Origin: a virus | Taxonomy: Duplodnaviria; Heunggongvirae; Uroviricota; Caudoviricetes | Virus record (IMG/VR): IMGVR_UViG_3300015360_001243 | Span: 49,999 to 113,998 of that record | Strand: one strand, 5' to 3' | DNA length: 64,000 nucleotides | Shown: positions 1 to 35,003 of the stretch, in pieces | Numbering within the stretch: position 1 is the stretch's first letter | How the letters are laid out: each line of letters begins with the position of its first letter | Program-made: the position numbers and the translations under genes | Notes under the pieces: model-generated | Told to the model about the DNA's origin: nothing | Databases searched by the model: none | Seen by the model: only the letters and a program-made list of their open reading frames with translations

Positions 1-1437
1 AAGTTCAACGGATCTTTGCGTGGTGAGATTGTCATGTTGAAGAGTGTTCATCAAAAACACTTTGCCGATAAGTCTAATCCTCGTAATGCTGCCTCTGGCA
101 CCTCTAAACGATTGGATGGTGTTGGTGTTGATAGGTTGAACATCATTTTTTACCAAGTTCTTGGTGATGTAGAGTTTGATACTGAGATCGATCAGTTCGA
201 ATGGCTAGAGAAGCACGCCCTGGGAGTTCCTAACTACTGGAAGTTCAAGACGGTTGATGATGTCAATACACATTGGCGTGATTACCAAGATAACAAGCGC
301 GATAAACTTGACTATGATATCGATGGGCTTGTCATTCGCTTGAATGAATTGGCTATGCAACTCACTTGGGGAGATAAGGATCTTCGTCCACTAGGGGCTA
401 TTGCCTTCAAGTTTGATAACGAGATGCGCGAATCAACCATCCGAGATATCATCTGGCAGGTTGGTAACAGCGGGCGTATCACTCCAGTGGCTGTTGTTGA
501 CCCCGTTCAACTGGTTGGAGCTATGGTTTCCCGAGCTAGCATTTATAATCTAGCTTACATTGAGGAGTTGGGCCTGGATATTGGGGCTAAGGTATTGGTT
601 GCACGAGCCAATGACGTCATTCCTCGCATTGAAGAGTTGGTCAAAGGTACTGGTAAGACCGCTAAGGGCCCTCAATTCTGCCCTGAGTGTGGTGGATTGA
701 CCAAGATGGATGGTGAAAACCTGATGTGTGGCAACGTCAAGCATTGCCGCGCCCAGATTATTGGCCGTATCAAGAACTGGGTTGCTGAGTTGAACCTACT
801 TGAATGGGGCGATACGTTGATTGAGAAGCTTGTTGATGCTAAGAAAATCAAGACAGTAGCAGACCTTTACACTCTAAAGGTTGATGATATTGCTAATCTT
901 GATCGTCTTGGAGAGAAGACAGCCGAGAAATGCCTTAACATCTTGAAAGCGAACATGGAAGTTCCTCTGGAAGTCTTCCTTGGAGCTTTGAGCATTCAGA
1001 TGATTGGTCAATCTACCATCAAAGCCATTATGAATGCTGGTTGCGATACGCTAGAGCGGTTCGGACAGTTGAGTGCAGCTAACTTTGAACAGGTCCCTGG
1101 CGTTGGTCCTACCAAAGCACAGTTCCTTGCGGCTGGATTAAAGAACAATCAGGCAGTTATCAATGCTCTTATTGACAACGGCGTTACTATTAAGGGTATT
1201 GTTCAGGGCGTTATGACTGGGAAGTCTATCTGTTTTACTGGCGCCATGAAGAACAAGCGCCCAGTTCTAGAGAAGATGGCCGCTGAACAGGGTGCAGAGG
1301 TCAAAGGATCTGTTGGTAAGGGGCTTACGTACCTTGTCATCGCTGATCCGAATAGCACTTCTTCTAAAGCAGTAGCTGCTCGTAAGTTCGGAACTACTTT
1401 GATTTCTGAAGATGCCTTTCTTGACTTAGTAAAGTAA
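1..1437 (+). CDS. ligA: NAD+-dependent DNA ligase (LigA), C-terminal ~480 aa; the 5' end runs off the window
   Basis: The reading frame is open from nt 1. It has the adenylation-domain motif SNPRNAASG (E. coli ANPRNAAAG), the OB-fold region, the four-Cys zinc finger CPECGG..C..C, an HhH region and a C-terminal BRCT-like GKSICFTG segment. Confidence 0.9.
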   Translation, partial: KFNGSLRGEIVMLKSVHQKHFADKSNPRNAASGTSKRLDGVGVDRLNIIFYQVLGDVEFDTEIDQFEWLEKHALGVPNYWKFKTVDDVNTHWRDYQDNKRDKLDYDIDGLVIRLNELAMQLTWGDKDLRPLGAIAFKFDNEMRESTIRDIIWQVGNSGRITPVAVVDPVQLVGAMVSRASIYNLAYIEELGLDIGAKVLVARANDVIPRIEELVKGTGKTAKGPQFCPECGGLTKMDGENLMCGNVKHCRAQIIGRIKNWVAELNLLEWGDTLIEKLVDAKKIKTVADLYTLKVDDIANLDRLGEKTAEKCLNILKANMEVPLEVFLGALSIQMIGQSTIKAIMNAGCDTLERFGQLSAANFEQVPGVGPTKAQFLAAGLKNNQAVINALIDNGVTIKGIVQGVMTGKSICFTGAMKNKRPVLEKMAAEQGAEVKGSVGKGLTYLVIADPNSTSSKAVAARKFGTTLISEDAFLDLVK

Positions 1438-2615: not shown

Positions 2616-2921
2616 ATGCTAGATTGCATTATTACGGTCGCCGCCATCTTTGGTTTGGCATTTTTGATTAAAGAGTCCGATGGCCCCTGGGGAATCATAG
2701 CAAAGGCTCGAAATTTCTTGATGACCAACAAATATGTTGGTGTTTTCTTCTATAAATTATTGGATTGCTACTTTTGTTTAGGTTTTCATTGTGGATGGGT
2801 GGCATACCTGTTGCATGAACAGACTTATTCTCCATCACTTTTTGTCTTGTGGGGGCTTGCGGGGGGCGTCATCAGCCTTACATTCGATATGCTGTTAAGA
2901 AAACTATCGCCATCTCAGTAA
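2616..2921 (+). CDS. hypothetical membrane protein
   Basis: Two or three hydrophobic helices and a CYFCLGFHCGW motif. Confidence 0.4.
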   Translation: MLDCIITVAAIFGLAFLIKESDGPWGIIAKARNFLMTNKYVGVFFYKLLDCYFCLGFHCGWVAYLLHEQTYSPSLFVLWGLAGGVISLTFDMLLRKLSPSQ

Positions 2922-2942: not shown

Positions 2943-3140
2943 GTGAAGAGATTGTTGCTGATTTTAATACCCCTGTTGCTTGATTGTTCTAGTATTGTGA
3001 ACAATCCAATGGATATACCTGACAAGGTAAAGGTGTATTGTCAGGGCGATCTTTGTTGTTACCCTGTCGATACCACGGCAATGGCCTGTACTAACGCTTT
3101 TAGCGGACAAAGATTCATGATTTACATCAAAATCTATTGA
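2943..3140 (+). CDS. small secreted protein or lipoprotein candidate
   Basis: Signal-peptide-like N-terminus MKRLLLILIPLLLDCSS, Cys-rich. Confidence 0.3.
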   Translation: MKRLLLILIPLLLDCSSIVNNPMDIPDKVKVYCQGDLCCYPVDTTAMACTNAFSGQRFMIYIKIY

Positions 3141-3278
3141 CAAATTTCCATCTCCAAACTATATTGTTTGTCGAGAAAAAGATAACTCTATTACATTAGT
3201 ATTATGACCCTAGTGGTCATCCGAATTAAATCTATAAATTGACTCAATATAGTCGCCCGAATAAAAGATAGAGGAAAA

Positions 3279-4769
3279 ATGGCCCTGCCTGTTATTAAAG
3301 ATCAGTCTATTATCGACAAGATTAAGGTTGTGGAGTCCGTCAAGCGTTGGACTCTGAACTTTACCGACATCATCAACAACAATAACAAGTTCTACAACCT
3401 TGAAATTGTCAAGTCTACTGACTCCAAGCTGTATCTTTATACAGTTTATGGTCGAGTTGGAGCTAATGGCGCCAAGGAATACAGGTCTTGCGGCTCTTTG
3501 TCTGATGCCGAGAAAGAAGCCGAGAGCATTGTTAAGGCAAAATCCAAAAAGGGTTACGTTGAAGTCAAGCTTGCTAAGGCAGACATTGGCTCTGAGCTTG
3601 GTAAAGCGAAGGTTGATACCTCCGTTACCGTGGAATCCCTTAGGAAAGCGGGCGTTCAAGTTAAGGAAGAACCTCAAGCAGCAAGTAAGCTGCATCCTGA
3701 AGTGCAGGATCTTGTTCGTACGTGGTTCGGCGTTACTCAAGAGTTCATTGAATTGAACCTTGACACCAAGAAGTGTCCTCTTGGACAGCTCTCTCTTGAT
3801 CAAATTGATAAGGCAAAGCAGATTCTTGAAGAGGCTCGCCTGATTGTTGCTGCTAAGAAGCCTGATGTTCAGGAGTTGAACAAGCTAACTAGCTCGTATT
3901 ACTCCAACATCCCTCACGTTCTTGGTCATTGCATCAATGCAGACCTTCTTCGCTTCGATGATAACCCGAAGATTGATAAAGCTTTTGATATTCTTGACGT
4001 CTTTGCTGACGCTAAGAACGTTCAGGCTGTTATTTCCAAGAAGTCTGCGGTCGATTCGCAGTATGCAACCCTGAATGCAGACCTGGAATGGGTGGATCCT
4101 ACGGATCCCACCTTCAAGTGGATTGATAAGATGGTACATGACACACGCGCATACAACCACCAGGGCCTTGGCAAGCTGAAAGTTCACAAGATTTTCCGCC
4201 TCAAGCGAAATAGTGAAGATAAGAACTTCATTGAAACGGCTCAGCGCATTGCTAAGGAGTGTGGAAAGCATTCTCCGTCTGAGACTTACGCTAAGTTGGT
4301 TGCTACTCGCCCTGATGTGCCCAAGGCTCTTCAGGAGCTTTATCAGCATGCCAATGTTGCGCCGGGCTGGCACGGCACTCGTAGAGCTAATATGATTGGT
4401 ATTACGACTAAGGGACTTCTGATTCGTCCTTCTGGCGTCATTCACGCTGGCTCTATGTATGGTGACGGTATTTATTGGGCTACTAATAGTACTAAATCTA
4501 TCAACTACTGTGACGTCAAAGGTTCCTATTGGGCTCAAGGCACCAACAAGACAGCTTATCTGTTCTTGGGTGACGTGGCTTATGGTAACTACAAGTATGC
4601 TAATGGGTCTCATCTTTACACTAAGAAGAATATTGCGCCCGCTCACTCGGTTTTTGCCCGCGCTGGTGGCGGGGTTCTGAATGATGAGCTGATTACTTAC
4701 ACTCCGACTGGCCCTGAGCAGCAACATGCTCTTCGCTACATCATCGAATTTGAAACACAGGTCAAATAA
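3279..4769 (+). CDS. poly/mono-ADP-ribose polymerase homologue (WGR domain + PARP regulatory + PARP catalytic domain)
   Basis: The N-terminal WGR pattern is WTLNF..KFYNLEIV..YTVYGRVGANG..KKGYVEV. The C-terminal catalytic signature is WHGTRRANMIGITTKGL (H-G), HAGSMYGDGIYWATNSTKS (S, Y) and NDELITY (catalytic E), which aligns with PARP1 HGS...GIYFA...YNEYIVY. Confidence 0.85.
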   Translation: MALPVIKDQSIIDKIKVVESVKRWTLNFTDIINNNNKFYNLEIVKSTDSKLYLYTVYGRVGANGAKEYRSCGSLSDAEKEAESIVKAKSKKGYVEVKLAKADIGSELGKAKVDTSVTVESLRKAGVQVKEEPQAASKLHPEVQDLVRTWFGVTQEFIELNLDTKKCPLGQLSLDQIDKAKQILEEARLIVAAKKPDVQELNKLTSSYYSNIPHVLGHCINADLLRFDDNPKIDKAFDILDVFADAKNVQAVISKKSAVDSQYATLNADLEWVDPTDPTFKWIDKMVHDTRAYNHQGLGKLKVHKIFRLKRNSEDKNFIETAQRIAKECGKHSPSETYAKLVATRPDVPKALQELYQHANVAPGWHGTRRANMIGITTKGLLIRPSGVIHAGSMYGDGIYWATNSTKSINYCDVKGSYWAQGTNKTAYLFLGDVAYGNYKYANGSHLYTKKNIAPAHSVFARAGGGVLNDELITYTPTGPEQQHALRYIIEFETQVK

Positions 4770-4770
4770 A

Positions 4771-5037
4771 ATGACTACCTACAAAGTTATGAAAGTTTTT
4801 GATTGTCAATCTGGCATGTCTGATGAAGTTAAAAAAGCATTCTTTTCATTTTATGAATGCGGTAATGACGTTTATGTTACTTGGACGGTTCAAGAGGATG
4901 ATACTGAATATGACGGCGATGATGAATTTGCTGTTAATAGGCGCCTGGTTGATGCTTGGCTTATGGAAAATGGGGCCGAGGGACGTGCCGAAGACAAGTA
5001 CAACGGGGAAACCGTTCTAATCAATCATTGGTGGTAA
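4771..5037 (+). CDS. hypothetical acidic protein
   Basis: ATG immediately after the PARP stop; the start could instead be 4726. Confidence 0.4.
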   Translation: MTTYKVMKVFDCQSGMSDEVKKAFFSFYECGNDVYVTWTVQEDDTEYDGDDEFAVNRRLVDAWLMENGAEGRAEDKYNGETVLINHWW

Positions 5038-5038
5038 T

Positions 5039-5368
5039 ATGAGTACAAATTTCCATGCAGAAATCGGATATGGGTTTCAACTTACCGATGAAAAATTAAT
5101 TGAAAATGTTAATGAAGGTAAAGTAAAACTGCCTGTTCATTTAGCTATGATGTGGGCAGGAGATGCCTTTTCTGGTGACATGGAAACTTTTATTGTTGTT
5201 AAAGGTAGCGCGTCTGGAGTTGCTTCTTGGCAATGCTATTCGCGTATGATTGCCCACGAAGAATTAGTTGCTGTTGATGAGTGGGAAACACAACTTCTAA
5301 CTTGGGCTGATGAAAATAATATTGCTCACGCGGCTATTGGCTGGTGGCTTTGCACATCTCTTTCGTGA
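5039..5368 (+). CDS. hypothetical protein
   Basis: ORF in the gene chain; the ATG overlaps the upstream stop. Confidence 0.45.
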   Translation: MSTNFHAEIGYGFQLTDEKLIENVNEGKVKLPVHLAMMWAGDAFSGDMETFIVVKGSASGVASWQCYSRMIAHEELVAVDEWETQLLTWADENNIAHAAIGWWLCTSLS

Positions 5369-5374: not shown

Positions 5375-5857
5375 ATGATTGAAATTGTATCTGGTGACAT
5401 TTTTGACTCGACAGAAAAGTATCTCTGCCACCAGTGCAACTGTGTGACTAATAAATCTGCGCATTTTGCGAAAGACGTATTTGCTAGGTATCCATACGCC
5501 GATATTTATACCGGCAGGACAGAACCAAATAAACCTGGAACCATTGAAGTGAGGGGTAACGGGGAAGACCAGCGATACGTCATTAACTTATTGGGACAGT
5601 ACTACCCAGGAAAACCCAAGTACCCATACTCCACTCTTGATGGAGTTCATATTAGACAAACGTATTTTTACAGATGTCTCCTCCGTATAGCTCAACTTCC
5701 CAACTTGGAGAGCGTCGCTTTTCCTTGGAGAATCGGTTGTGGGGCTGCGGGTGGAGTATGGGAACATTATCTTGGCAATCTAACTAACTTTGCTAATCAC
5801 GTTGAGAATACTCAAGGTGCCAAAGTTCTTATCTATAGACGTGAAGGTGATGAATGA
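5375..5857 (+). CDS. macro-domain protein, TARG1/OARD1-like (ADP-ribose glycohydrolase candidate)
   Basis: GDIFDS..LCHQCNCVTNKSAHFAKDVF and RIGCGAAGGVWEHY align with human TARG1 GDLFAC..HCISEDCRMGAGIAVLF and RIGCGLDRLQWENV. Confidence 0.7.
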   Translation: MIEIVSGDIFDSTEKYLCHQCNCVTNKSAHFAKDVFARYPYADIYTGRTEPNKPGTIEVRGNGEDQRYVINLLGQYYPGKPKYPYSTLDGVHIRQTYFYRCLLRIAQLPNLESVAFPWRIGCGAAGGVWEHYLGNLTNFANHVENTQGAKVLIYRREGDE

Positions 5858-6198
5858 AAGTATGTGAAACATTTACGGCTAACATTTATCTTGGTTTAAA
5901 GGCGGGCTATGATGGCGAAGAAACATCCGTAGATGTTGTTCGCCGCTGGTTAGAAGTTTATTGTAATGAAGTGAAACTGGGTGTAACCCTTACCAAGACA
6001 GAATTCATTTATGTAGATGGTGGGGAGCCGGGCGTTATTGTTGGGCTCATCAATTATCCGCGCTTTCCTAAACCAGTTTCGGAAATAAAAACAACGGCGC
6101 TGGTTATTGCTCAAGGTCTACTTAATTTGTGTTCTCAAGAAAGAGTATCTGTTGTGTTCTCTGACATAACAGTTATGGTGGAAAAAATCGAATCATGA
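5854..6198 (+). CDS. hypothetical protein
   Basis: ORF with an ATGA overlap onto the macro gene. Confidence 0.45.
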   Translation: MKVCETFTANIYLGLKAGYDGEETSVDVVRRWLEVYCNEVKLGVTLTKTEFIYVDGGEPGVIVGLINYPRFPKPVSEIKTTALVIAQGLLNLCSQERVSVVFSDITVMVEKIES

Positions 6199-6431
6199 CT
6201 TCTTATGAAAATTCAAATGGTTTCCTACTAGGTCTTGTACTTTTAGCTAAATATAGATTAGATGATTTTACAGTAAATGTAATTGAAACGTCAACTATTT
6301 CTATTAATGGTCTTAGGTCTGTATCTAAAGAAGATATGGAAGATCTAAAGCTTTTCGGATGGAATGTCGGAAAAGATAAAGACGGCGGCAGTTGGGCCGA
6401 GTTTTTCAAACTAGAATACGTGGATACCTAA
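6195..6431 (+). CDS. hypothetical protein
   Basis: ORF with an ATGA overlap. Confidence 0.4.
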   Translation: MTSYENSNGFLLGLVLLAKYRLDDFTVNVIETSTISINGLRSVSKEDMEDLKLFGWNVGKDKDGGSWAEFFKLEYVDT

Positions 6432-6432
6432 G

Positions 6433-6864
6433 ATGACAATCAAGTTTTATAAAACCAATGAACCCTATGGTTTCTTAAATAATTTCAAAAAAGCTAGAAT
6501 GTTTGTCTATGGTCGTTGGTGGAACAATGTCGAAGCTCCCTATCAATCTCAAAAGACCAATGTTCTTGATGAACAAGATGCTATCTGGGCCTGCGTAACT
6601 CCTAGAGAAGCAAGGGACCTTGGACAAAAAGTTCATATGAGAGAGTTTTGGGACAAATATAAAGACCAGGCTATGTACGAATGCTGTATGGCTAAGTTTC
6701 TCCAGCATCCCGATCTTCGAGCTAAGCTAATGGCAACGGGTGAGGAAGAGATAATGGAAGATAGTCCAGTCGATTGGTATTGGGGATGTGGTAAAGATGG
6801 AACCGGGAAGAATATGCTCGGGAAAACTCTCATGAAAATTCGTGAAGAACTAAAAGGCGAGTGA
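6433..6864 (+). CDS. NADAR-domain protein (YbiA-like; ADP-ribose / NAD-related N-glycosidase)
   Basis: FYKTNEPYGFLNNF, APYQSQKT (cf. SxEHYFQAxK), KFLQHPDLRAKLMATG, SPVDWYWGCGKDGTGKNMLGKTLMKIRE. This is a strong match to the NADAR/DUF1768 pattern. Confidence 0.8.
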   Translation: MTIKFYKTNEPYGFLNNFKKARMFVYGRWWNNVEAPYQSQKTNVLDEQDAIWACVTPREARDLGQKVHMREFWDKYKDQAMYECCMAKFLQHPDLRAKLMATGEEEIMEDSPVDWYWGCGKDGTGKNMLGKTLMKIREELKGE

Positions 6865-6968
6865 TTTCGTCGACTTGAATTTTTAATTTTCGGGCCCTTG
6901 ATTTTTGTTATGAAATCCACATATTGTGGATGCGCGGGAAGCCATCCCTACAAATTAGGAGATAATAT

Positions 6969-7430
6969 ATGTCAACGTTAAATACTATAGTGCAAGAGGT
7001 TGTTGAGTCGTTTATGAAGGATGAGGAGCTGTTTACTGCTCTCGATGTGAGCAATAAGGTCAAGCTGTCGCAACCCTTTGCTCGTCATGGTGAAGTTAGG
7101 GACGCAGTGCGTGAGCTTTTCACTTCTGTGTTGCAGCCTGCAAGCTGGGCCCGCTCACCGATCAAGGTGACCCTTGCCGATGGCAGTCAACAGACGGCTC
7201 TTCTGTACCATCCGCTTTCCGCTTCTTGGGACTTGGATGATAAGTATGATGACCAGAAGCGATCTCAAGCGGCCGTTAAGACTACTTCTGCCAAGGCGCC
7301 TACGACTGCTGGTGTTTCGACTCCGGTTGTTGCAGCTCCCGTGGCGAAGGTTATTCCTGCTCCGGTTGCAGTCAAGGATCAGTGGGCTAATCTGTTCAGC
7401 AGTCAGCCGTCTCTGTTCCCCCGAAAGTAA
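6969..7430 (+). CDS. hypothetical protein with an Ala/Pro/Val-rich C-terminus
   Basis: ORF with a good GGAG spacing upstream of the ATG. Confidence 0.45.
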   Translation: MSTLNTIVQEVVESFMKDEELFTALDVSNKVKLSQPFARHGEVRDAVRELFTSVLQPASWARSPIKVTLADGSQQTALLYHPLSASWDLDDKYDDQKRSQAAVKTTSAKAPTTAGVSTPVVAAPVAKVIPAPVAVKDQWANLFSSQPSLFPRK

Positions 7431-7432
7431 CT

Positions 7433-7810
7433 ATGAGTGCGGAAAAAGCATTGTATTACGAGGCTCATGTTACCATTGAGCCCGTATTCGATGATAGGCT
7501 AGATAAGTTTACGGCAATTTGTAAGGAACGTAAGTTTCGTGTTGCCGACTTAGTTATGCAGAAGCGAAAAGAAGATACGGCGGAGAGATCCAAGTATGAT
7601 TCTTTTTGTACTGGTCACGGTCCAGATGGACAAGAATTGAAAACAAGAATGTTTTCTTTGCTTGATGATTTGAAGAAGGAAGCCTATCAGATCTGGCGAT
7701 ACAAGATTGAAGTTGTTCCTTTGGACTCTCGTTACAATGATAGCGAGTATCCTTTGGATAAATCTGTTTGTCCTGAGAAGGAAAGAAATCCGAAACCGTT
7801 AAGCGAGTAA
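7433..7810 (+). CDS. hypothetical protein
   Basis: ORF in the gene chain. Confidence 0.45.
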   Translation: MSAEKALYYEAHVTIEPVFDDRLDKFTAICKERKFRVADLVMQKRKEDTAERSKYDSFCTGHGPDGQELKTRMFSLLDDLKKEAYQIWRYKIEVVPLDSRYNDSEYPLDKSVCPEKERNPKPLSE

Positions 7811-7815
7811 ACTCA

Positions 7816-8622
7816 ATGTCAAGGCACTTAATTCTGTATCGTGGTATCGAATTTGAAAAAGATGAACAGGAAGCTGCTAATTGGTTTTTCAAAACTACAA
7901 ACCGAAGACCTGATATCACCAGCGGTGATATGGTCATAGGGCGATATTCGCTTTGGCCATTCTATTCCGACCAGGCAAAAGACATTGATTATGTTGGGGC
8001 TCGTTTAATCAACGACTACAATCAACATCTTTATGTGGCCGATTTAGGGAATTATGTAACGGATCTTGGAAAGCTTACGCCTCGGACATGGCGAAGCCTG
8101 GAGGATTTGCCCGAGAAAGGACCCTTTGTTCTCAAAGGAGAAACTAACTCGCGCAAATCCAATTGGAAGCGTGACATGTTCGCCGAAACCAAAACAGAAG
8201 CTATCATGGTAGCTAATCGACTGGCAGACGATAGTTTGATCGGTCATCAAAAGATTTACATTCGTCAGTACGTCCCCCTTGTCAAATACATGGATGGAGT
8301 TAATGGTATGCCAGTCACCAAGGAGTTTCGCTTCTTTGTTGCTTTTGGCTTTGTCATTAGTGGTGGATATTATTGGCAAAACTATGTTGATGATATTGGT
8401 GGCACTCCAGATCATAATGAAGTTCCTCGGGAATTTCTTCAAGAAGTCATTGAGGCAGTTGGCGACCAATCTAATTTTTATACAATTGATGTGGGTCAAA
8501 CTGAAACTGGTGAGTGGATTGTTATTGAATTGAATGAAGGTCAACAAGCAGGGCTTTCTTGCAACGATCCTTTTAAATTGTATGAGAACCTAAGTACGGT
8601 ACTTAAAAGCAAAGGCCTGTGA
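7816..8622 (+). CDS. possible ATP-grasp fold protein
   Basis: The C-terminal segment YTIDVGQTETGEWIVIELNEGQQAGL resembles the ATP-grasp D..G..vLEVN..PG motif. This is a weak call. Confidence 0.35.
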   Translation: MSRHLILYRGIEFEKDEQEAANWFFKTTNRRPDITSGDMVIGRYSLWPFYSDQAKDIDYVGARLINDYNQHLYVADLGNYVTDLGKLTPRTWRSLEDLPEKGPFVLKGETNSRKSNWKRDMFAETKTEAIMVANRLADDSLIGHQKIYIRQYVPLVKYMDGVNGMPVTKEFRFFVAFGFVISGGYYWQNYVDDIGGTPDHNEVPREFLQEVIEAVGDQSNFYTIDVGQTETGEWIVIELNEGQQAGLSCNDPFKLYENLSTVLKSKGL

Positions 8623-9233
8623 AAAAGTTCAATACTTTACAAGAGTTATGGTCTTATTGTTTGTTTTGCCCTTTGTGTCAAGACATGACAAGAGATATTA
8701 CGGTTGTAGCTGGACCATATGACGTAGTGGCAATTATGGGACAGTCGAAAGACAATGAGTTTCTAAAAATAGAAACAGTTGTCAAACTGTTGAAACAGCG
8801 ATATAGTGTTAACTACTATATTGATTGTGTAAGGAATGTCTTTACGATTAGCGTCCCTAAAATGGTTCCAAGTAATGAGGAATCTGTTACTAAGGCCTCT
8901 TCGTCAGTTTTCTTTTTCTCTTTAATTAGTAACTGTGAAGCTTGTGGAAACACAAGCTTAAATAGTTCAGATATTGAACTTGATATTCTCTCTAAGAAGA
9001 TTTCCAATTTTGGGGTCGACATGGAGGGGATTTATCTTCTTGAACAAAAAACTAAGTATCATTTAACCCTGAATCATAGCTCTGATGAGTTATTAGTTTC
9101 AAAATGCTTTGAAGATGATTCTGGCACTATCATAGATGATAATAAAGTAATAAACTTACCTCTGACTCATTTTGATTTTTCTAAACCAAAAAAGGTTCTT
9201 AATCGAATAAGAACCTTTCTAGTTTTCAGCTAG
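8619..9233 (+). CDS. hypothetical protein
   Basis: ORF with an ATGA overlap. Confidence 0.45.
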   Translation: MKKFNTLQELWSYCLFCPLCQDMTRDITVVAGPYDVVAIMGQSKDNEFLKIETVVKLLKQRYSVNYYIDCVRNVFTISVPKMVPSNEESVTKASSSVFFFSLISNCEACGNTSLNSSDIELDILSKKISNFGVDMEGIYLLEQKTKYHLTLNHSSDELLVSKCFEDDSGTIIDDNKVINLPLTHFDFSKPKKVLNRIRTFLVFS

Positions 9234-9241
9234 GAGATTCC

Positions 9242-9445
9242 ATGGCTACATTTCGAGAGGCAAATCAAGTTCGTATTTCACTAAAGATTAAACTTTCCAT
9301 GCATGCATGGTATAGTTCGAGCGCTGTAGCCAGTACAGATGATGGATACTATGTAATTATTCACGTATCTCGTCTGGATAACCAAATTAGAAAGATAATT
9401 TCACCAGTTATCAATGGTGTGAGCGTTAAAACGGAATTAGAATGA
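9242..9445 (+). CDS. hypothetical small protein
   Basis: ORF with an ATGA overlap onto the next gene. Confidence 0.35.
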   Translation: MATFREANQVRISLKIKLSMHAWYSSSAVASTDDGYYVIIHVSRLDNQIRKIISPVINGVSVKTELE

Positions 9446-10092
9446 AAATTGTAGCAATTTCAGATACACATTCAAAGCATCGCACTTTAACTGTTCCTGA
9501 TGCTGATACAATCGTGTGCGCTGGTGATATTTCTTTTAAAGGAGAATTTAATATCGTAGAAGATTTTGTAAATTGGATGGCAGCACTTCCTATTAAAAAT
9601 AAAGTAATGATTTTTGGTAATCATGAAGTTGGAATGGCGCATGGCCTTAAAAGAGAGGCTGCTTTAAAGCTTTTACAAGACTCTGGAATTATCTATCTAG
9701 AAGATAGTGGAACAGAGATTGATGGAATTAAATTTTGGGGCTCCCCAGTTCAACCTAGATTTTTTGATTGGGAATGGAATAGAAATCGTGGTCCAGATAT
9801 TAACGCACATTGGAAATTAATTCCAGCAAATACTAATGTATTGATTACGCATGGCCCGCCTCATGGGATTCTAGATTTAGTGAACAATTCTATTGGAAGA
9901 GATCCTCATCAAGGTTGTGAAGATTTAAGAAGAAAAGTTGATACGTTAGATCAATTGAAACTTCATGTTTTTGGACATTTACACCGTGAAGGTGGAAATC
10001 AATCTATCATTGATAACAAAATTTTTGTTAATGCTGCTATTTGTGATGATGCATATAATCCAAGTCGCCCACCCATTCTAATAGAGATCTAA
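9442..10092 (+). CDS. calcineurin-like metallophosphoesterase (second copy)
   Basis: GDISFKGE, GNHE, ITHGPPHG and GHLHREG motifs. Confidence 0.75.
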   Translation: MKIVAISDTHSKHRTLTVPDADTIVCAGDISFKGEFNIVEDFVNWMAALPIKNKVMIFGNHEVGMAHGLKREAALKLLQDSGIIYLEDSGTEIDGIKFWGSPVQPRFFDWEWNRNRGPDINAHWKLIPANTNVLITHGPPHGILDLVNNSIGRDPHQGCEDLRRKVDTLDQLKLHVFGHLHREGGNQSIIDNKIFVNAAICDDAYNPSRPPILIEI

Positions 10093-10410
10093 ATGAAATT
10101 CAAACCAAAAGAGATTCAGGTGAATCTTCCGGCCGTCCACTTGTTTTCTAACGAAGATGAGATTCCGGCCATGGCCGCTGCCATCAATACTATTATTCAT
10201 GGTAAGGTCAAGATTAAGTATGAGACCATTGGCATTTTGGCCGGGCAGTACTGTGGCCTCTTTTATGTTCAAAGAAACAATGAGTCTCAAGAACTTAGAG
10301 AAGAATTCTTACAGATGATTGACCAAGAAGAACTATCGGCTCCTTTAGATCCGGTAGAGAAAATGTTGGCCGAAGAAAAAGAATCTGATAGAGATTATTT
10401 TGATGACTGA
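10093..10410 (+). CDS. hypothetical protein
   Basis: ORF with a TAAATG junction. Confidence 0.4.
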   Translation: MKFKPKEIQVNLPAVHLFSNEDEIPAMAAAINTIIHGKVKIKYETIGILAGQYCGLFYVQRNNESQELREEFLQMIDQEELSAPLDPVEKMLAEEKESDRDYFDD

Positions 10411-10669
10411 GAATAAGCATTCACATTTGATTGGTCGTACTTTTGGCCAACTCAAACTTGTAGATATTGAAGAATTTAAATCCCTAACTAATAGGCCGGG
10501 ATATAGAATTCATCTTGAATGCAAATGCGGAAAACTTTGTTCATACCCCTTTAAAAGACTAAATGGTATTATGAGGGGCAGCCAGGTGTCTTGCGGTTGT
10601 GTTCGTAAAGATAAGTGGCGCAAAGGCTTTTATGCTTTTATGACTGAGCAAAATAAAGAAGGCAAATGA
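10400..10669 (+). CDS. hypothetical Cys-rich small protein
   Basis: CKCGKLC...CGC motifs. Confidence 0.4.
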   Translation: MMTENKHSHLIGRTFGQLKLVDIEEFKSLTNRPGYRIHLECKCGKLCSYPFKRLNGIMRGSQVSCGCVRKDKWRKGFYAFMTEQNKEGK

Positions 10670-11136
10670 TCGTTTCATTTACAGGGCATAGACCAGATAA
10701 GTTGGGCGGATATCAAATTCCCAACCCAACTTATCGTCATGTTTGCCAGCAGATTGATAAGGTTCTTCGAGAGTTAAAACCAGACAAGATTATTACTGGC
10801 ATGGCTCTCGGAGTAGACCAGTGGGCAGCAAACATTGCTCTCAAGATGGAGATACCCTACATTGCCGCTGTGCCCTTTCTAGGACAGGAGAAGGCCTGGC
10901 CACCTAGTTCTCAAAGGGTATTTAATACATTGCTCAAGTGGGCTAGCGAGGTCGTTATTGTTAGTGAGGGCGACTATCATCCTGCTAAGATGCAGATTCG
11001 TAATGAATGGATGGTCGATAGGGCAGATAAAGTCATTGCTATTTGGGATGGAACCAAAGGTGGGACTGGTAATTGTGTAGATTATGCCAAGTCAAAAAAC
11101 AAGGAAATTATTTTTATTAACCCTCACATTGACTAA
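10666..11136 (+). CDS. SLOG-type Rossmann protein (YpsA/DprA-like, DUF1273-like)
   Basis: TGHRP...GMALGVDQWAANIAL...IWDGTKGGTGNCVDYAK pattern. Confidence 0.4.
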   Translation: MIVSFTGHRPDKLGGYQIPNPTYRHVCQQIDKVLRELKPDKIITGMALGVDQWAANIALKMEIPYIAAVPFLGQEKAWPPSSQRVFNTLLKWASEVVIVSEGDYHPAKMQIRNEWMVDRADKVIAIWDGTKGGTGNCVDYAKSKNKEIIFINPHID

Positions 11137-11178
11137 AAATTACATAGATATTATAGTAATAGACTCACATAGTTACAC

Positions 11179-11262
11179 GCCGAAGTGGTGGAATGGCAGA
11201 CACACTGGATTCAAAACCCAGCGCAGCGATGCATGAGGGTTCGAGTCCCTCCTTCGGCACCA
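11179..11262 (+). tRNA. tRNA-Leu (anticodon CAA), class II with a long variable arm, CCA encoded
   Basis: The acceptor stem GCCGAAG/CTTCGGC is a perfect 7 bp. The T arm is GAGGG-TTCGAGT-CCCTC. The anticodon loop TTCAAAA has an A-C mismatch at positions 31-39. Confidence 0.7.
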
Positions 11263-11289
11263 GTTAATTTCTCTATTTGAAAGACAGAG

Positions 11290-11754
11290 ATGTTTAATAA
11301 CATAAAGAATTTGTTGACCTTGACAGTACGAGTTCAAGACTATAACATAGTCGCACAAGACCCGGCTTTCATCAGGACTCTTCGATTACTTACTTTAACA
11401 CCTACCTCAGGGATGAATTACGAGCTAGATAATTTTGCTCGCATTCGTTTGGAGAGAGATGTCAAATGTAAAATTCTAACTGCTTACCGCAGCAATGAAT
11501 TGGTAGGTTGGGCCCTGGTTTCTAAGGAGCCAACTGATTTTTGTTTCGCTAACGCTTACGCTGGATTCAATCCTAAAGATGGATCTCTCTTTCAAGTTTA
11601 TGTTCAGCCTCAACATCGGCGGCAAGGAATTGCGGCTGAGTTACTAAAAGTTGCAAACGAACACTCTGATAACGGACTATGTGTTTGTCCCTGGGATGAA
11701 ACCAGTGAACTCTTTTATCGGAGAAAAAATAGTTATAACGCAAAATTACTTTAA
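11290..11754 (+). CDS. GNAT-family N-acetyltransferase (start uncertain)
   Basis: GNAT motif A region VYVQPQHRRQGIAAELL. Confidence 0.45.
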   Translation: MFNNIKNLLTLTVRVQDYNIVAQDPAFIRTLRLLTLTPTSGMNYELDNFARIRLERDVKCKILTAYRSNELVGWALVSKEPTDFCFANAYAGFNPKDGSLFQVYVQPQHRRQGIAAELLKVANEHSDNGLCVCPWDETSELFYRRKNSYNAKLL

Positions 11755-11792
11755 ATTCTATAGGAATAAGCTGATATATACGTCAGCATCAT

Positions 11793-11876
11793 GCTACCAT
11801 GGTGGAATGGCAGACACGCTGGTCTTAGAAGCCAGTGCCGCAAGGCGTGGGGGTTCGAGTCCCTCTGGTAGCACCA
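11793..11876 (+). tRNA. tRNA-Leu (anticodon TAG), class II, CCA encoded
   Basis: Acceptor stem GCTACCA/TGGTAGC. The anticodon stem is CTGGT/GCCAG with loop CTTAGAA. The T arm is GGGGG-TTCGAGT-CCCTC. Confidence 0.8.
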
Positions 11877-11879
11877 AAT

Positions 11880-11956
11880 GCTCAAGTGATGGAATTGGCA
11901 TACATACTACTCTCAGAAAGTAGGTTTTAGGAGTTCGACTCTCCTCTTGAGCACCA
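11880..11956 (+). tRNA. tRNA with anticodon CAG (Leu codon CUG) but a short variable arm and a weak D arm; identity ambiguous
   Basis: The acceptor stem GCTCAAG/CTTGAGC is perfect and CCA is encoded. The anticodon stem is CTACT/AGTAG with loop CTCAGAA. The T arm is AGGAG-TTCGACT-CTCCT. The D stem has only about 3 bp. Confidence 0.5.
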
Positions 11957-12202
11957 ATGATTGAATTAATTGATAACTTTATAGTAGGAACTGATCAGCT
12001 TGAATTAGAGGCATTGCAAGTCTTGCTTACCGAATTTTCTCCTGAATTTACCTTTTCAATCCTTGAGAACGAACATCTAGAAGTAGATCCTGCATCATTC
12101 ACTTTGATTATAGAAATACAAAATCCATCTAATTCCCCAGATATGAGTTCTTTTTTAGAGTTTCTTTCAAGTAAAATTGAGGAAGTAAATCAGCAGTCAT
12201 AA
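11957..12202 (+). CDS. highly acidic small protein (DNA-mimic candidate)
   Basis: This 81-aa ORF begins right after the CCA of the upstream tRNA. It is strongly acidic with few basic residues. Confidence 0.45.
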   Translation: MIELIDNFIVGTDQLELEALQVLLTEFSPEFTFSILENEHLEVDPASFTLIIEIQNPSNSPDMSSFLEFLSSKIEEVNQQS

Positions 12203-12207
12203 AGAAT

Positions 12208-12291
12208 GGGATCGTGGCGGAACGGCATACGCACTGGTCTAAGAAGCCAGCACCTCACGGTTTAAGGGTTCAAGTCCCTTCGATCCCACCA
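12208..12291 (+). tRNA. tRNA-Leu (anticodon read as AAG; TAA not excluded), class II, CCA encoded
   Basis: Acceptor stem GGGATCG/CGATCCC. The anticodon stem is CTGGT/GCCAG with loop CTAAGAA. The T arm is AAGGG-TTCAAGT-CCCTT. Confidence 0.7.
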
Positions 12292-12298
12292 AATAGAA

Positions 12299-12335
12299 AA
12301 AGCTTCCAGGGAAACCTAGAAGCTTTATTTATTTT
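12299..12335. terminator. bidirectional rho-independent terminator between convergent transcription units
   Basis: The hairpin AAAGCTTC..(loop)..GAAGCTTT is followed by TATTTATTTT. It sits between the plus-strand tRNA and the stop of the minus-strand gene. Confidence 0.6.
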
Positions 12336-12347
12336 GAATTGAGTAGA

Positions 12348-13235
12348 TTAAAATCCTAGATCAGGTGGTTTTGGTGTATTCTGAGCTACTTGTTGTGCTG
12401 GTTGAGTCGTATTTGGGGTAACAACTGCTTTATCACTGTAAGATGGATCATTGTAGGCAACTTGCATTCCAGGGAATTTTTTCTTGAATTCTTTTCCGGC
12501 AGCTTCTCCAACTTGTGCATCAGGAGTATTGGCAGCCAAAGAAAAATCTTGCTTAAACTTATCAAGAGCCTTACGGGTAGCTGGGCCCAAAGTACCTTCA
12601 GTTCCATTAGTATTGTAACCTAATTGAGTTAAAGCCTTTTGAACATATGGATCAATTTTTCCATATCCACCTGCTGGGCGAGCAGTATTTGCGGCTGGTG
12701 CAGCACCTGGAGTTTGAGTTACATTTCCCTGCCACGCAGTAGCAACGCCTTCTTGTTTACCAACAAGATTAATTGCTTTTTGGTATTGGTCGGGACTAAT
12801 CTGTTGTAGCCTCATTAAAGTAGCTAGATTCTCTGGTTTTTTAGCTAGTTGTTCAGGGGTCATTTGAGCGGGAGAAACACCTTCGCCACCATAATCACGT
12901 GGGCTACCCGACATACGTTGACCAAACTTTGAGATAATAGTATCAAATTGTTCAATAAAAGACTTCTTCTTTGCAAATGGGTTTCCTTTTGCGAATGGGT
13001 TGCCCTTGGCAAATGGATTTGGTTTCTTAGATTTTTTTTCTTTTGAGCCTGACTTGCTTTTCTCGGAAGATGACGTATCTTCTTTCTTAACTGGTTTTTT
13101 GGACTTCTTTTCTTCTTTCTTTTTGGTGCTTTTTTCCAAAGAATCAGAAGCTGTCTTCTCGAAGTTACTTACTAAAAATAAAATTTGATCTGCTTTGTTA
13201 GACATTAAAACCTCTGAGACGGACGTTATATTCAA
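12348..13235 (-). CDS. peptidoglycan-binding-domain protein with a Lys/Glu/Ser-rich N-terminal half and tandem GNPFAK repeats
   Basis: VQKALTQLGYNTNGTEGTLGPATRKALDKFKQDF matches the PG_binding_1 pattern. There is a triple GNPFAK repeat and a KKEEKKSKKPVKK low-complexity stretch. Confidence 0.6.
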   Translation of the reverse strand: MNITSVSEVLMSNKADQILFLVSNFEKTASDSLEKSTKKKEEKKSKKPVKKEDTSSSEKSKSGSKEKKSKKPNPFAKGNPFAKGNPFAKKKSFIEQFDTIISKFGQRMSGSPRDYGGEGVSPAQMTPEQLAKKPENLATLMRLQQISPDQYQKAINLVGKQEGVATAWQGNVTQTPGAAPAANTARPAGGYGKIDPYVQKALTQLGYNTNGTEGTLGPATRKALDKFKQDFSLAANTPDAQVGEAAGKEFKKKFPGMQVAYNDPSYSDKAVVTPNTTQPAQQVAQNTPKPPDLGF

Positions 13236-13361
13236 AACTACTAATAACTAGGCAAGTTTATTGCCAGACCGTATTAATATATGGTGTACGTTGTCATTCA
13301 GTAATGATGGCTGACTGTGAATCAGCTAAAGCGGGGGCAGCACCCGTCGTACACCCCAAAT

Positions 13362-13436
13362 GCCTCGTTCGTCTACTGGCTAGGATGCTAGGTTTTCACC
13401 CTGGCGAAAGGGGATCGAAACCCCTACGAGGTACCA
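13362..13436 (+). tRNA. tRNA-Glu (anticodon TTC), CCA encoded
   Basis: The acceptor stem GCCTCGT/ACGAGGT has a G-U pair at 1-72. The anticodon stem is CTAGG/CCTGG with loop TTTTCAC. The T arm is AGGGG-ATCGAAA-CCCCT. It overlaps the spurious ORF 13304..13618. Confidence 0.55.
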
Positions 13437-13650
13437 TGAGTAAGTTGGTTCTGTTAAGTCTACTTCTAACTGGATGTTTCTTTGATCACCCTCAGTATTG
13501 CCATACTCATGGCGATTGTTTAGATGGTCAGTACTGTCCAGCAATTAGATCGCCAGAACAACTACCGTTGATTTGTAAGGGAAAAGCAATCGTCACTCCA
13601 ATGAAATTGGGCGATTAATCTGTCAATAAGTCGATATATAAAGTACACCT

Positions 13651-13726
13651 GGCCCCATCATCTAATGGTTCAGGATATCAGCCTCTCACGCTGAGTATAC
13701 GGGTTCGAATCCCGTTGGGGTCACCA
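13651..13726 (+). tRNA. tRNA-Glu (anticodon CTC), CCA encoded
   Basis: Acceptor stem GGCCCCA/TGGGGTC. The anticodon stem is TCAGC/GCTGA with loop CTCTCAC. The T arm is ACGGG-TTCGAAT-CCCGT. Confidence 0.7.
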
Positions 13727-13739
13727 AGTAAGTTGTTAT

Positions 13740-13816
13740 GTGCCTGTAATTCAACTGGATAGAAATGCTGCCTTCTAAGCAGTAAGTTGGGGGTTCGAAT
13801 CCCTCCAGGCATGCCA
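13740..13816 (+). tRNA. tRNA-Arg (anticodon TCT), copy 1, CCA encoded
   Basis: Acceptor stem GTGCCTG/CAGGCAT. The anticodon stem is GCTGC/GCAGT with loop CTTCTAA. The T arm is GGGGG-TTCGAAT-CCCTC. Confidence 0.7.
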
Positions 13817-13827
13817 AGCAAGTTTAT

Positions 13828-13902
13828 GTCGTTGTAGTCTAAGGGATAGGCGTCTGCCTTCTAAGCAGAATTATGTAGGTTCGAATCCTACCAGCGATAC
13901 CA
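13828..13902 (+). tRNA. tRNA-Arg (anticodon TCT), copy 2, CCA encoded
   Basis: Acceptor stem GTCGTTG/CAGCGAT. The anticodon stem is TCTGC/GCAGA with loop CTTCTAA. The T arm is GTAGG-TTCGAAT-CCTAC. Confidence 0.7.
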
Positions 13903-13914
13903 GTAAGTTGTTAT

Positions 13915-13991
13915 GTGCCTATAGCTCAACTGGATAGAGCGTCGGTCTACGAAACCGAAGGTTGAAGATTCGAATTCTTCTAGGCATGCCA
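13915..13991 (+). tRNA. tRNA-Arg (anticodon ACG), CCA encoded
   Basis: Acceptor stem GTGCCTA/TAGGCAT. D stem GCTC/GAGC. The anticodon stem is TCGGT/ACCGA with loop CTACGAA. The T arm is GAAGA-TTCGAAT-TCTTC. Confidence 0.75.
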
Positions 13992-14048
13992 GGTTGTGGG
14001 AGATATATCCCTTAATAGATTATGTCCATTAGGTGCCCACGGTCTTAT

Positions 14049-14123
14049 GTCTCTATAGTGAAAAGGATATCACGATTGTCTTCGAAACAATCAGTACAGG
14101 TTCGATTCCTGTTGGAGATGCCA
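14049..14123 (+). tRNA. tRNA-Arg (anticodon TCG), CCA encoded
   Basis: Acceptor stem GTCTCTA/TGGAGAT. D stem GTGA/TCAC. The anticodon stem is ATTGT/ACAAT with loop CTTCGAA. The T arm is ACAGG-TTCGATT-CCTGT. It lies inside the 5' extension of ORF 14033. Confidence 0.75.
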
Positions 14124-14170
14124 TAGCGTCGAGAGGCGCTATTTTTATTTGTATTATTGGAAAAATTATT

Positions 14171-15133
14171 ATGAGAATCCTATCAGGCATTCAGCCATCA
14201 GGAACAATTCATATTGGCAATTACTTTGGAATGATTAAGCCGCTGCTTAGTTTTCAAGATAAGGGTGAAGTGTTTGGGTTCTTGGCCGATTATCATTCAA
14301 TGACCTCTCTCTTCGATGCTAAAGAAAGAAAAGAGAATACTTTAGAGGCTGCCACTACGCTCTTAGCTTGTGGTCTAGATCCTTTAAAGACAACCTTCTT
14401 CAAGCAATCAGATTTGCCCGAAGTAACTGAGCTGGCCTGGATTCTTTCTACTGTAACACCTATGGGCTTGCTAGAAAGATGCCATAGCTATAAAGACAAG
14501 GTAGCCAAAGGAATTTCTTCCAATCATGGGCTCTTTGCCTATCCAGTTCTCATGGCGGCAGACATTCTATTGTACCAATCTAATTTGGTTCCAGTAGGAA
14601 AAGATCAACAACAGCATTTAGAAGTAACCAGAGATATTGCCGTCAAGTTCAATGAGAAGTATGGTAACACTTTTGTTTTACCGGAACCTCTTATTCAAGA
14701 GCAGGTAGCGGTAGTTCCCGGAACTGATGGACAGAAAATGTCTAAGAGCCATGGAAACACTATTGAAGTTTTCGGAGATGAAAAGGTTCTGAAAAAGAAA
14801 ATCATGTCTATCGTTATGGATAGCCGTCCTCCTACGGAACCCAAACCAGATGCAGATAAAAATATTGCCATTCAATTATTGAAATTAGTAGCCCCAGCAG
14901 ATGTAGCTTCAGAAACTGAAATCAAATTACGAGAAGGTAATCTTGGTTATGGTGCATTGAAAGTAATTCTGTTTGAACACTATTACAATTATTTTGAAAA
15001 GCCAAGAGGGCTGTATCGTGAATTGAAAGATAACCCGGCTTATGTAGAGCAGTATCTTCAAGATGGTGCTGAGGATGCTCGTTATCACGCCGCTATAACT
15101 ATGGGACTCGTTAGAAAAGCTGTAGGCTTGTGA
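14171..15133 (+). CDS. trpS: tryptophanyl-tRNA synthetase
   Basis: MRILSGIQPSGTIHIGNYFG (HIGH-type motif), PVLMAADILLY, VPVGKDQQQHLEVTRD and KMSKS. This is a close match to the bacterial TrpRS layout. The start is moved to 14171 because the longer ORF overlaps a tRNA. Confidence 0.92.
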   Translation: MRILSGIQPSGTIHIGNYFGMIKPLLSFQDKGEVFGFLADYHSMTSLFDAKERKENTLEAATTLLACGLDPLKTTFFKQSDLPEVTELAWILSTVTPMGLLERCHSYKDKVAKGISSNHGLFAYPVLMAADILLYQSNLVPVGKDQQQHLEVTRDIAVKFNEKYGNTFVLPEPLIQEQVAVVPGTDGQKMSKSHGNTIEVFGDEKVLKKKIMSIVMDSRPPTEPKPDADKNIAIQLLKLVAPADVASETEIKLREGNLGYGALKVILFEHYYNYFEKPRGLYRELKDNPAYVEQYLQDGAEDARYHAAITMGLVRKAVGL

Positions 15134-23466: not shown

Positions 23467-23510
23467 AGCCCGCAGTGATTGATATAAAGTCACTGCGGGC
23501 TTTTGCTTTT
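23467..23510 (+). terminator. rho-independent terminator after rIIB
   Basis: The hairpin AGCCCGCAGTGA..TCACTGCGGGCT is followed by TTTTGCTTTTT. Confidence 0.8.
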
Positions 23511-23520
23511 TGAGGTCAAT

Positions 23521-32666: not shown

Positions 32667-33143
32667 ATGAAGTATCCGAAAGTTCCAACCAAACCTTATG
32701 CCCCGTACAAACCTCAACCTCCTGCCAAGCAGATTGAGAAGAGTACGCCTATTGGCTCTACTGATTTTCATGAAGATTGCTCATATTCCCTTCAATCTTT
32801 TGAAGAATTTATTAAGGCCAATTCCACCGGAGCAACTCCTTCTGATGTCAAATTCTCTTGGGAAATTGAGAAAGAACCAACTTATTACGATGAGACTATT
32901 ATCTCACTCAAGATTAAATTCTTTACGGTTGCCTTGATTGATAATCCGCAGTATGATAGGCTGTATGCTTATTACGAAGAGCACCTAAAGAAGTATGAGA
33001 AAGATTATCAGAAGTATCGAGACAATCTAAAGCAATATAAGATCGATGAAATCCGTTACAAGGATGACCTTGAAACATGGACTCTTGATAATGCTAAAGA
33101 AACTATCAAAAGATTAGAAGCTAAAAAAGGTAAGAAAAAATGA
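32667..33143 (+). CDS. hypothetical protein
   Basis: ORF. Confidence 0.4.
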   Translation: MKYPKVPTKPYAPYKPQPPAKQIEKSTPIGSTDFHEDCSYSLQSFEEFIKANSTGATPSDVKFSWEIEKEPTYYDETIISLKIKFFTVALIDNPQYDRLYAYYEEHLKKYEKDYQKYRDNLKQYKIDEIRYKDDLETWTLDNAKETIKRLEAKKGKKK

Positions 33144-34338: not shown

Positions 34339-34350
34339 AAAGTAAAATAA

Positions 34351-34833: not shown

Positions 34834-35002
34834 AATGATTGGTATCCAAGAGTTTAAAGGCGACCTGATCAAAATCGAACAGTTTCTAAACACAGACGCT
34901 GTAAAATTGGGTTGGAAAGTTTTATCTATTCAAAAGGTTCGTTGCTGGTATATATTCGGACCTGATGAGTACTTTGTCACATATGAGAAAGAAGATAAGT
35001 AA
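34805..35002 (+). CDS. hypothetical small protein
   Basis: ORF. Confidence 0.3.
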   Translation: MDGKEKRVSRMIGIQEFKGDLIKIEQFLNTDAVKLGWKVLSIQKVRCWYIFGPDEYFVTYEKEDK

Positions 35003-35003
35003 A

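Follow-up and report, generated by a model that had tools for sequence, protein, structure and literature searches.

DNA repair in eukaryotes depends centrally on PARP1-3, which are also major drug targets, yet the prokaryotic and viral relatives of these enzymes are almost unstudied. In bacteria, the Herpetosiphon enzyme, which joins a WGR domain, a helical regulatory domain (HD) and an ADP-ribosyltransferase (ART) domain, is DNA-dependent for its activity (PMC8120803). In phages, PARPs with a conserved triad were reported from Aeromonas phage Aeh1 and Cellulophaga phage phi4:1 (Perina et al., 2014; PMC4245714), PARPs were described in jumbo phages with the XacN1 protein cited (Iyer et al., 2021; PMC7824862), and PARP-type ARTs were placed among the most frequent viral ARTs, with poly-ADP-ribosylation suggested (Iyer et al., 2022; PMC9503650). 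Phage PARPs are discussed as likely active in these papers (PMC4245714, PMC7824862, PMC9503650). GenBank annotates PARPs in Xanthomonas, Klebsiella and Cellulophaga phages, and the automatic labels of JGI call the family described here PARP. No experimental study of a phage PARP was found in the literature searched. Here we analyse a PARP gene in a 64,000-nucleotide stretch of bacteriophage DNA (the window; positions 49,999 to 113,998 of IMG/VR record IMGVR_UViG_3300015360_001243). The evidence supports a genuine PARP homologue of the DNA-dependent type, within the PARP1/2/3-like clade as judged from its sequence, and the encoded transferase is apparently catalytically competent. Since phage PARPs and the idea of their activity are already published, the discovery is incremental and opens no new category; the rarity of PARPs outside eukaryotes that an initial annotation of the locus had stressed, and the novelty this implied, were overstated.

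Domains, active site and break-contact residues

The gene and the parts of its product discussed below are as follows (ORF, open reading frame).

3279..4769, + strand: PARP gene, 496 aa, WGR-HD-ART; ORF from ATG to stop
3351..3569, + strand: WGR domain, aa 25-97 (Pfam WGR, 2.1e-18)
3684..4058, + strand: HD (PARP_reg), aa 136-260 (Pfam PF02877, 1.9e-18)
4113..4754, + strand: ART (PARP catalytic) domain, aa 279-492 (Pfam PARP, 5.1e-19)
4215..4349, + strand: clade-specific helical insertion of ~33 aa (about aa 313-357), after the first ART strand and ahead of the His strand
4371-4373, + strand: triad residue H365, aligned to PARP1 H862
4473-4475, + strand: triad residue Y399, aligned to PARP1 Y896
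4686-4688, + strand: triad residue E470, aligned to PARP1 E988

All three Pfam matches exceed their curated cut-offs (26.8 bits for PARP_reg). Searched alone against the PDB (phmmer), the ORF matches human PARP1 at 1.7e-29, in an alignment that ends before the catalytic Glu. A profile built from an alignment of 91 PARP homologues of 25-90% identity (A1) matches PARP1 at 1.1e-114 and PARP2 at 4.3e-113, both aligned over their full length. The identification as a true PARP homologue, already made in the initial annotation, is thus borne out by the three domains and the PARP1 profile match; the exact limits of the ORF and the N-terminal WGR domain, whose motif reads Y-G-R, are likewise confirmed. 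The HD, which lies between the WGR and catalytic domains, had been overlooked. It has its own Pfam match, is all-helical in the structure model and aligns to the HD of PARP1 and PARP2 in profile alignments, and its presence strengthens the idea of allosteric, nucleic-acid-dependent activation. Only 24 residues precede the WGR domain, and Pfam finds no further domain in the ORF, neither PARP1-type N-terminal zinc fingers nor a BRCT domain, so the protein is PARP2/3-like or bacterial-like and not PARP1-like. Of eight comparisons with orthologues, four allowed dS to be computed, and these gave dN/dS values of 0.03-0.10; because dS is saturated, these values indicate strongly purifying selection and nothing finer.

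A single-sequence AlphaFold model of the protein (pLDDT 34.6) was discarded and replaced by an AF2 model based on A1 (pLDDT 88.7, pTM 0.83). The best Foldseek match of this model in the PDB is DNA-break-bound PARP2/HPF1 (6x0l, 7.9e-28), and DNA-break-bound PARP1 is also matched (4dqy, TM 0.69/0.75). The predicted ART fold belongs to the H-Y-E (diphtheria-toxin/PARP) class. Neither the R-S-E active site (Arg, Ser-x-Ser, Glu) nor the fold that goes with it is found in the phage protein; their presence would have told against a PARP, and the Foldseek matches instead show resemblance to PARP2 and PARP1.

The motifs on which the initial annotation had relied are present, WHGT starting at aa 364, GIYWA at aa 397 and NDELITY at aa 468. 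In the A1 profile, the H, Y and NDE of the family fall on PARP1 WHGS, GIYFA and YNE(988), with 'LlndElIvY' on 'LLYNEYIVY'. The residues of the NAD site follow the same pattern, G366, K406, S407 and Y410 corresponding to PARP1 G863, K903, S904 and Y907. These four and the triad are invariant in 120 close homologues, and each of the seven is kept in at least 56 of 64 distant ones. The donor loop is gap-free against PARP1 in the profile alignment and hence of PARP1 length. In the AF2 model, H365, Y399 and E470 sit on predicted strands (360-366, 398-401 and 470-473). Profile alignment and strand positions in the model, on which the equivalence is based, therefore agree in placing an apparently intact H-Y-E triad, as had been claimed for it, on the PARP1 positions.

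The one distinctive feature of the protein is the insertion of ~33 aa, which is predicted to be helical, with pLDDT 92-97 over the block. It is limited to the PARP family of the window and its 25-51% identical relatives; the other aligned sequences lack it, as do human PARP1 and the PARPs of XacN1 and the Klebsiella phages.

The WGR domain is the putative break sensor. In PARP2, Y201, K130 and K183 surround the 5' phosphate, W151 stacks on the 5' ribose, R153 and N127 contact the 3' side, and Y132, K179 and Q159 make further contacts (PMC6294510). Stable DNA binding is lost in the mutants N127A, R153A, K183A and Y201F; of these, N127A, R153A and Y201F have lost DNA-dependent activation as well (Obaji et al.; PMC6294510). 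Tyr201, which reads the 5' phosphate, sets PARP2 and PARP3 apart from PARP1. The isolated WGR domain of the phage protein has human PARP3 WGR as its best PDB match (2eoc, 8.6e-8), with NNNNKFY in common. In the profile alignment with PARP2, N34, N36, K37, Y39, R59, K88 and Y93 correspond to N127, N129, K130, Y132, R153, K183 and Y201, so that seven of ten break-contact residues are identical. The motif Y57-G58-R59 stands in place of W-G-R. N34, N36, K37, Y57, G58, R59, K88 and Y93 are each found in 120/120 close homologues (Y39 is outside that count), and Y93, the equivalent of PARP2 Y201, is one of only five invariant columns in the 91 sequences of A1. The HD is the autoinhibitory switch in PARP1 and PARP2 (PMC8190142). 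The contact residues together with the HD give good support, at the level of sequence, to the idea that the phage PARP would be activated allosterically by 5'-phosphorylated breaks.

The carrier phage and the gene neighbourhood

The window is bacteriophage DNA. It encodes rIIB (1.4e-67) and, adjoining it, an HSP90-like ATPase protein that is probably rIIA; a T4-type polynucleotide kinase (1.6e-83), an Rnl1-type RNA ligase and a Thg1-like enzyme point the same way, and 16 tRNAs, a bacterial-type tmRNA and bacterial IF3 are also present. An origin from a eukaryotic giant virus, raised by the best BFVD match (Bodo saltans virus), was rejected because of the bacterial-type tmRNA, IF3, rIIB, the T4-type kinase, Rnl1 and the IMG/VR phage contigs. 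That the phage is tailed is an inference: neither capsid nor tail genes were identified in the window, of whose ORFs of at least 100 aa about two thirds were scanned.

Against 50,697 phage records, megablast gave no match to the PARP gene or to 24 kb of the window. The protein family is large in metagenomes. It comprises 506 clusters at 90% identity, of which the best 120 are all at least 71% identical to the window protein, and cluster members lie on contigs of up to ~496 kb. In IMG/VR, 34 viral contigs carry a relative of the PARP, and 29 of the 34, up to 481 kb long, belong to the close family (66-86% identity). The clade is one of widespread, abundant huge phages of about 0.45-0.5 Mb. The sole match among 185,579 species-representative genomes is JBFWUT010000077.1 (6.4 kb, low coverage, 77% identity), from a metagenome-assembled genome binned as 'Candidatus Berkiella sp.', and a phage fragment binned in error is a likelier explanation for it than a true pointer to the host.

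The following genes surround the PARP or bear on its possible partners. Their conservation was counted over 31 close-family PARP loci, 29 of which have downstream sequence, and over 36 loci compared overall.

16..1437, + strand: NAD-dependent DNA ligase, 3' part (start before the window); Pfam adenylation, OB, HHH and BRCT
2616..2921, + strand: small hydrophobic ORF, 101 aa, conserved; given for context only
5375..5857, + strand: divergent macro-like protein, 160 aa, candidate ADP-ribose hydrolase; phrog_335 'phosphatase', 5.9e-16
6433..6864, + strand: NADAR-domain protein, 143 aa; Pfam PF08719, 9.5e-34
42862-43377, + strand: second macro-domain ORF, 171 aa; Pfam Macro, 3.5e-4; PADLOC DarG, 8.3e-12

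Upstream, the NAD-dependent DNA ligase, full-length at 623-634 aa in related contigs, accompanies the PARP at 30 of 31 loci and is 1.8 kb away in the window. The 101-aa hydrophobic ORF is found by tblastn 0.4-2.9 kb upstream at 31/31 loci; a family search with it gave no significant match.

Downstream, the macro-like gene is present at 28 of the 29 loci with downstream sequence, at 1.5-4.3 kb, and at 0.6 kb in the window. Its Pfam Macro score (0.13) is under the cut-off. The family profile matches BT1257 (2fg1, 1.8e-4), YmdB (5m3i, 0.046) and the SCO6735 macrodomain (0.069) in the PDB; every identifiable PDB match is a macro-domain protein and all are weak. The motif 'RIGCGAAGG' aligns to 'RIGCGLAGG' of BT1257, and JGI labels relatives of the protein O-acetyl-ADP-ribose deacetylase. 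These likenesses make a macro domain probable, if weakly so. The NADAR protein is clear, with 117 bits against a cut-off of 35.1 over profile positions 2-163 of 163 and a PADLOC match to PDC-M42C (7.3e-14); its gene follows the PARP at 24 of 31 loci. Neither the PARP nor the adjacent macro-like protein matched a defence-system model in PADLOC.

Two PARPs outside the close family have comparable neighbours. At one locus (L040; IMG/VR 3300022660_000063, 5780-14323), a PARP 27% identical to that of the window lies between an Rnl2-type RNA ligase and an ATP-dependent DNA ligase and is flanked also by an enzyme of the CCA-adding or poly(A) polymerase type. It consists of WGR and ART domains, with no PARP_reg match at E <=0.001. 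This is a second, independent PARP-ligase neighbourhood. In Klebsiella phage 05F01, a Pfam Macro gene lies 5.5 kb from the PARP. Both cases give partial support, from outside the close family, to a functional link.

The gap between the PARP and the macro-like gene (4771-5368 in the window) is a variable spot. Two small ORFs, 4771-5037 and 5039-5368, were rejected as parts of a module, being present at 3/36 and 1/36 loci; as a pair at this spot they are unique to the window. In relatives the gap holds a LAGLIDADG homing endonuclease and a radical-SAM gene, or other ORFs (L005 and L006, ~11.5-13.4 kb). An R2K-clade ATP-grasp protein (7816-8622, + strand; PF14243, 7.8e-21) lies 1 kb downstream of NADAR and occurs at just 6 of 36 loci. 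A near-consensus sigma70-like sequence, TTGACA-17-TATATT, 115 bp upstream of the PARP (3137-3165, + strand) was considered as an early promoter and not used: the pattern is upstream of the PARP at 0/31 related loci, and promoter-like sites are unenriched in the region.

Elsewhere in the window, the 171-aa macro ORF looks from its matches like an orphan DarG-type antitoxin and is a candidate anti-DarT counter-defence; it adjoins an RNA ligase, a NinI-like phosphatase and a methyltransferase. A large set for RNA repair and tRNA maintenance (26384-27496, 33140-35975, 36108-36863, 37515-38777, 40787-41449 and 46944-47735) comprises RlaP, the T4-type polynucleotide kinase with a partial second copy, Rnl1-type and Rnl2-type RNA ligases and a Thg1-like tRNA-His guanylyltransferase. 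Arrays of isoacceptor tRNAs on the + strand (11179-14123 and 48292-48754) hold four Leu, two Glu and four Arg, and four Thr tRNAs, one of the Arg tRNAs overlapping the start of a tRNA-synthetase ORF. The 16 are completed by another Arg tRNA and by one whose anticodon, CTA, reads UAG (54552-54626, + strand; ARAGORN: Pyl). The latter may be an amber suppressor, which raises the possibility of stop-codon recoding or suppression in the phage. The tmRNA (49181-49532, + strand) has the tag peptide ANDNAFAPLALAA. Genes of cellular type are full-length IF3, a class I Trp/Tyr-tRNA synthetase and adenylosuccinate synthetase (56047-56583, 14033-15133 and 23503-24711).

Possible roles of the PARP

By analogy with its relatives, we think it fairly probable that the protein carries out break-activated ADP-ribosylation by a PARP2/3-like cycle in the setting of phage DNA replication or repair. 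The WGR domain would dock at a nick or break with a 5' phosphate, Y93, K37 and K88 reading the 5' side and R59 and N34 the 3' side. Binding of DNA would destabilise the autoinhibitory HD, the NAD+ pocket (H365, G366, Y399, S407 and Y410) would open, and E470 would catalyse transfer of ADP-ribose from host NAD+ to the enzyme itself, to nearby proteins or to the break. Such a mark would not be lasting, the macro-like hydrolase encoded downstream being the most plausible eraser. With the NAD-dependent ligase as a constant upstream neighbour, the likeliest setting would be replication of the ~0.5 Mb genome, in which nicks and breaks in phage (or degraded host) DNA would be marked and handled.

Several observations weigh against this reading, some against the break sensor, some against the type of product and some against the partnership of the neighbouring genes. 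Of the PARP2 contacts, three are lost, W151 being replaced by Y57, Q159 by A65 and K179 by I84. The C-terminal part does not align strictly residue for residue with PARP1, as had been proposed: besides the extra ~33-aa insertion, ~27 PARP1 residues between 'HSVKGLG' and 'LLYNEYIVY' are absent, PARP2 has ~31 aa more in the loop that precedes the catalytic Glu, and PARP1 Y986 and N987 are replaced by Asn and Asp. What is left of the pre-Glu loop is about as long as in tankyrase. With the loop shortened and Y986 changed, elongation and branching behaviour are not transferable from PARP1. The catalytic Glu is indeed retained (E470), but its reading as a sign of poly activity does not hold. PARP3 and PARP4 are H-Y-E enzymes that Vyas reportedly classed as mono-transferases in 2014, and PDB entry names agree; H-Y-E is necessary and not sufficient for poly activity. 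A regular-expression search of the six-frame translation of the window for the bacterial PARG signature GGG-x6-8-QEE, a weak negative, found none, which is easier to reconcile with mono- or short-chain modification than with long polymers.

The neighbourhood carries its own reservations. Since the loci compared are orthologous and come from one lineage of related phages (66-86% identity), their synteny is by itself no proof of a functional link and may stem from shared ancestry, and in one relative (L005) both the macro and the NADAR gene are missing within 10 kb of the PARP. Phage NADARs are proven anti-DarT1 factors (PMC11257639). For NADAR, and for a DarG-like macro such as the ORF at 42862-43377, an independent anti-DarT role is well documented, and they need not partner the PARP; with both present, at least some of the hydrolases are probably counter-defences and not PARP partners. 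Finally, the literature searched held no biochemical evidence for any phage PARP.

Of the other explanations, the one that survives best, and which we still regard as rather unlikely, is an effector of host takeover or anti-defence. The enzyme would mainly ADP-ribosylate host proteins (RNA polymerase, the translation apparatus or defence proteins), as T4 Alt, ModA and ModB do; WGR and HD would serve only to regulate or localise it in a general way, and its trigger in the cell would be something other than DNA breaks. This is what the literature suggests, and the window is rich in genes for host manipulation and counter-defence (rIIA/B, the DarG-like macro, NADAR, tRNAs, tmRNA and IF3). However, all residues essential for break binding in PARP2 are invariant here, which is hard to explain if breaks are irrelevant. 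The fold is that of an H-Y-E PARP, unlike the R-S-E enzymes of T4, and the gene lies away from head and packaging genes, unlike those of many injected phage ARTs (PMC9503650).

A less probable alternative, to be given little weight, makes the nucleic acid itself the substrate. The acceptor would be a terminal phosphate of DNA or RNA at a break, as for PARP3 in vitro, and ADP-ribose would cap ends so that host exonucleases cannot attack them or ligases join them, or would label fragments of phage nucleic acid or tRNA, with the macro-like hydrolase uncapping them. PARP3 mono-ADP-ribosylates terminal phosphates at dsDNA ends, and macrodomain hydrolases reverse the reaction (PMC5725667). The closest match of the phage WGR domain is that of PARP3, the macro-like gene is almost always downstream of the PARP, and the window has a large set of end-repair enzymes (polynucleotide kinase, two to three RNA ligases, RlaP, Thg1 and DNA ligase). 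However, modification of DNA ends by PARP1-3 has up to now been seen mostly in vitro, the RNA-repair genes are 20-40 kb from the PARP, and sequence cannot tell protein from nucleic-acid acceptors.

It is improbable that the enzyme acts chiefly as a consumer of NAD+, responding to massive breakage by depleting the pool, for instance to shut down host metabolism or exclude superinfecting phage, with modification incidental. Control of NAD+ is central to phage-host conflict (PMC9503650), yet this phage needs NAD+ for its own DNA ligase, and the scanned ORFs of the window include no recognised NAD+ salvage gene. The precedent is eukaryotic: hyperactivated PARP1 depletes NAD+ in cells. Hardly any weight attaches to a catalytically dead, PARP-like scaffold or DNA-end-binding protein, given strong purifying selection and triad and NAD-site residues invariant in 120 sequences.

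Beyond the break-activated cycle favoured above, we entertain only tentatively that the clade carries a self-contained, reversible break-signalling module. A PARP2/3-like sensor-writer with a unique helical insertion by its NAD site would be combined with a small macro-type eraser of its own, and would act with the NAD-dependent ligase on nicks or ends of phage DNA, or cap nucleic-acid ends. If true, this would be the first PARP-based signalling of DNA damage or DNA ends shown in a virus of bacteria, and a simple model of pre-eukaryotic PARP signalling. Candidate roles thus span phage DNA repair, host takeover and protection of nucleic-acid ends. The minimal architecture, the conserved catalytic residues and seven of ten contact residues, the abundance of the clade, and the candidate erasers and NAD-dependent ligase nearby make the protein convenient for a first biochemical test of a phage PARP.

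Comparison with known PARPs and phage ADP-ribosyltransferases

Human PARP2 and PARP3 (ARTD2 and ARTD3) have the WGR-HD-ART architecture in common with the phage PARP, which is 20-29% identical to them. The phage protein is without their disordered N-terminal tail, and differs also in the Tyr that replaces the W of WGR, in the ~33-aa insertion and in the shorter pre-Glu loop.

The bacterial PARPs HaPARP and CdPARP are likewise WGR(-HD)-ART proteins with H-Y-E. HaPARP is DNA-dependent and makes poly(ADP-ribose) in vitro (PMC8120803). HaPARP and CdPARP each belong to a system that includes a dedicated hydrolase (PMC8120803, PMC5966428). However, the bacterial genes are chromosomal and paired with a bacterial-type PARG, whereas the neighbours of the phage gene encode a divergent macro-like protein and NADAR. 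Most bacterial PARPs are without a recognisable PARP_reg (PMC8120803), whereas the phage PARP has a clear one.

Among phage PARPs, those of Xanthomonas phage XacN1 (BBA65562.1) and Klebsiella phages 05F01 and FBKp34 are full length and have the WGR motifs and short pre-Glu loop seen in the window. Others are encoded by Xoo-sp13, Cellulophaga phage phi4:1 and Aeromonas phage Aeh1; all of these are H-Y-E proteins of Caudoviricetes, the Cellulophaga phage matches spanning the catalytic part only. The known phage PARPs have gene neighbourhoods other than that described here. Phage ARTs of the T4 Alt/ModA/ModB class use NAD+ to ADP-ribosylate macromolecules during infection, as is proposed for the window PARP, but R-S-E (cholera-toxin-like) phage ARTs are without WGR or HD, whereas the window protein is H-Y-E and PARP-like. 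What is new here is a PARP at most 29% identical to each of the 16 matching phage records, abundant in metagenomes, with a clade-specific insertion and, as its residues suggest, an unusually complete sensor of the PARP2/3 type.

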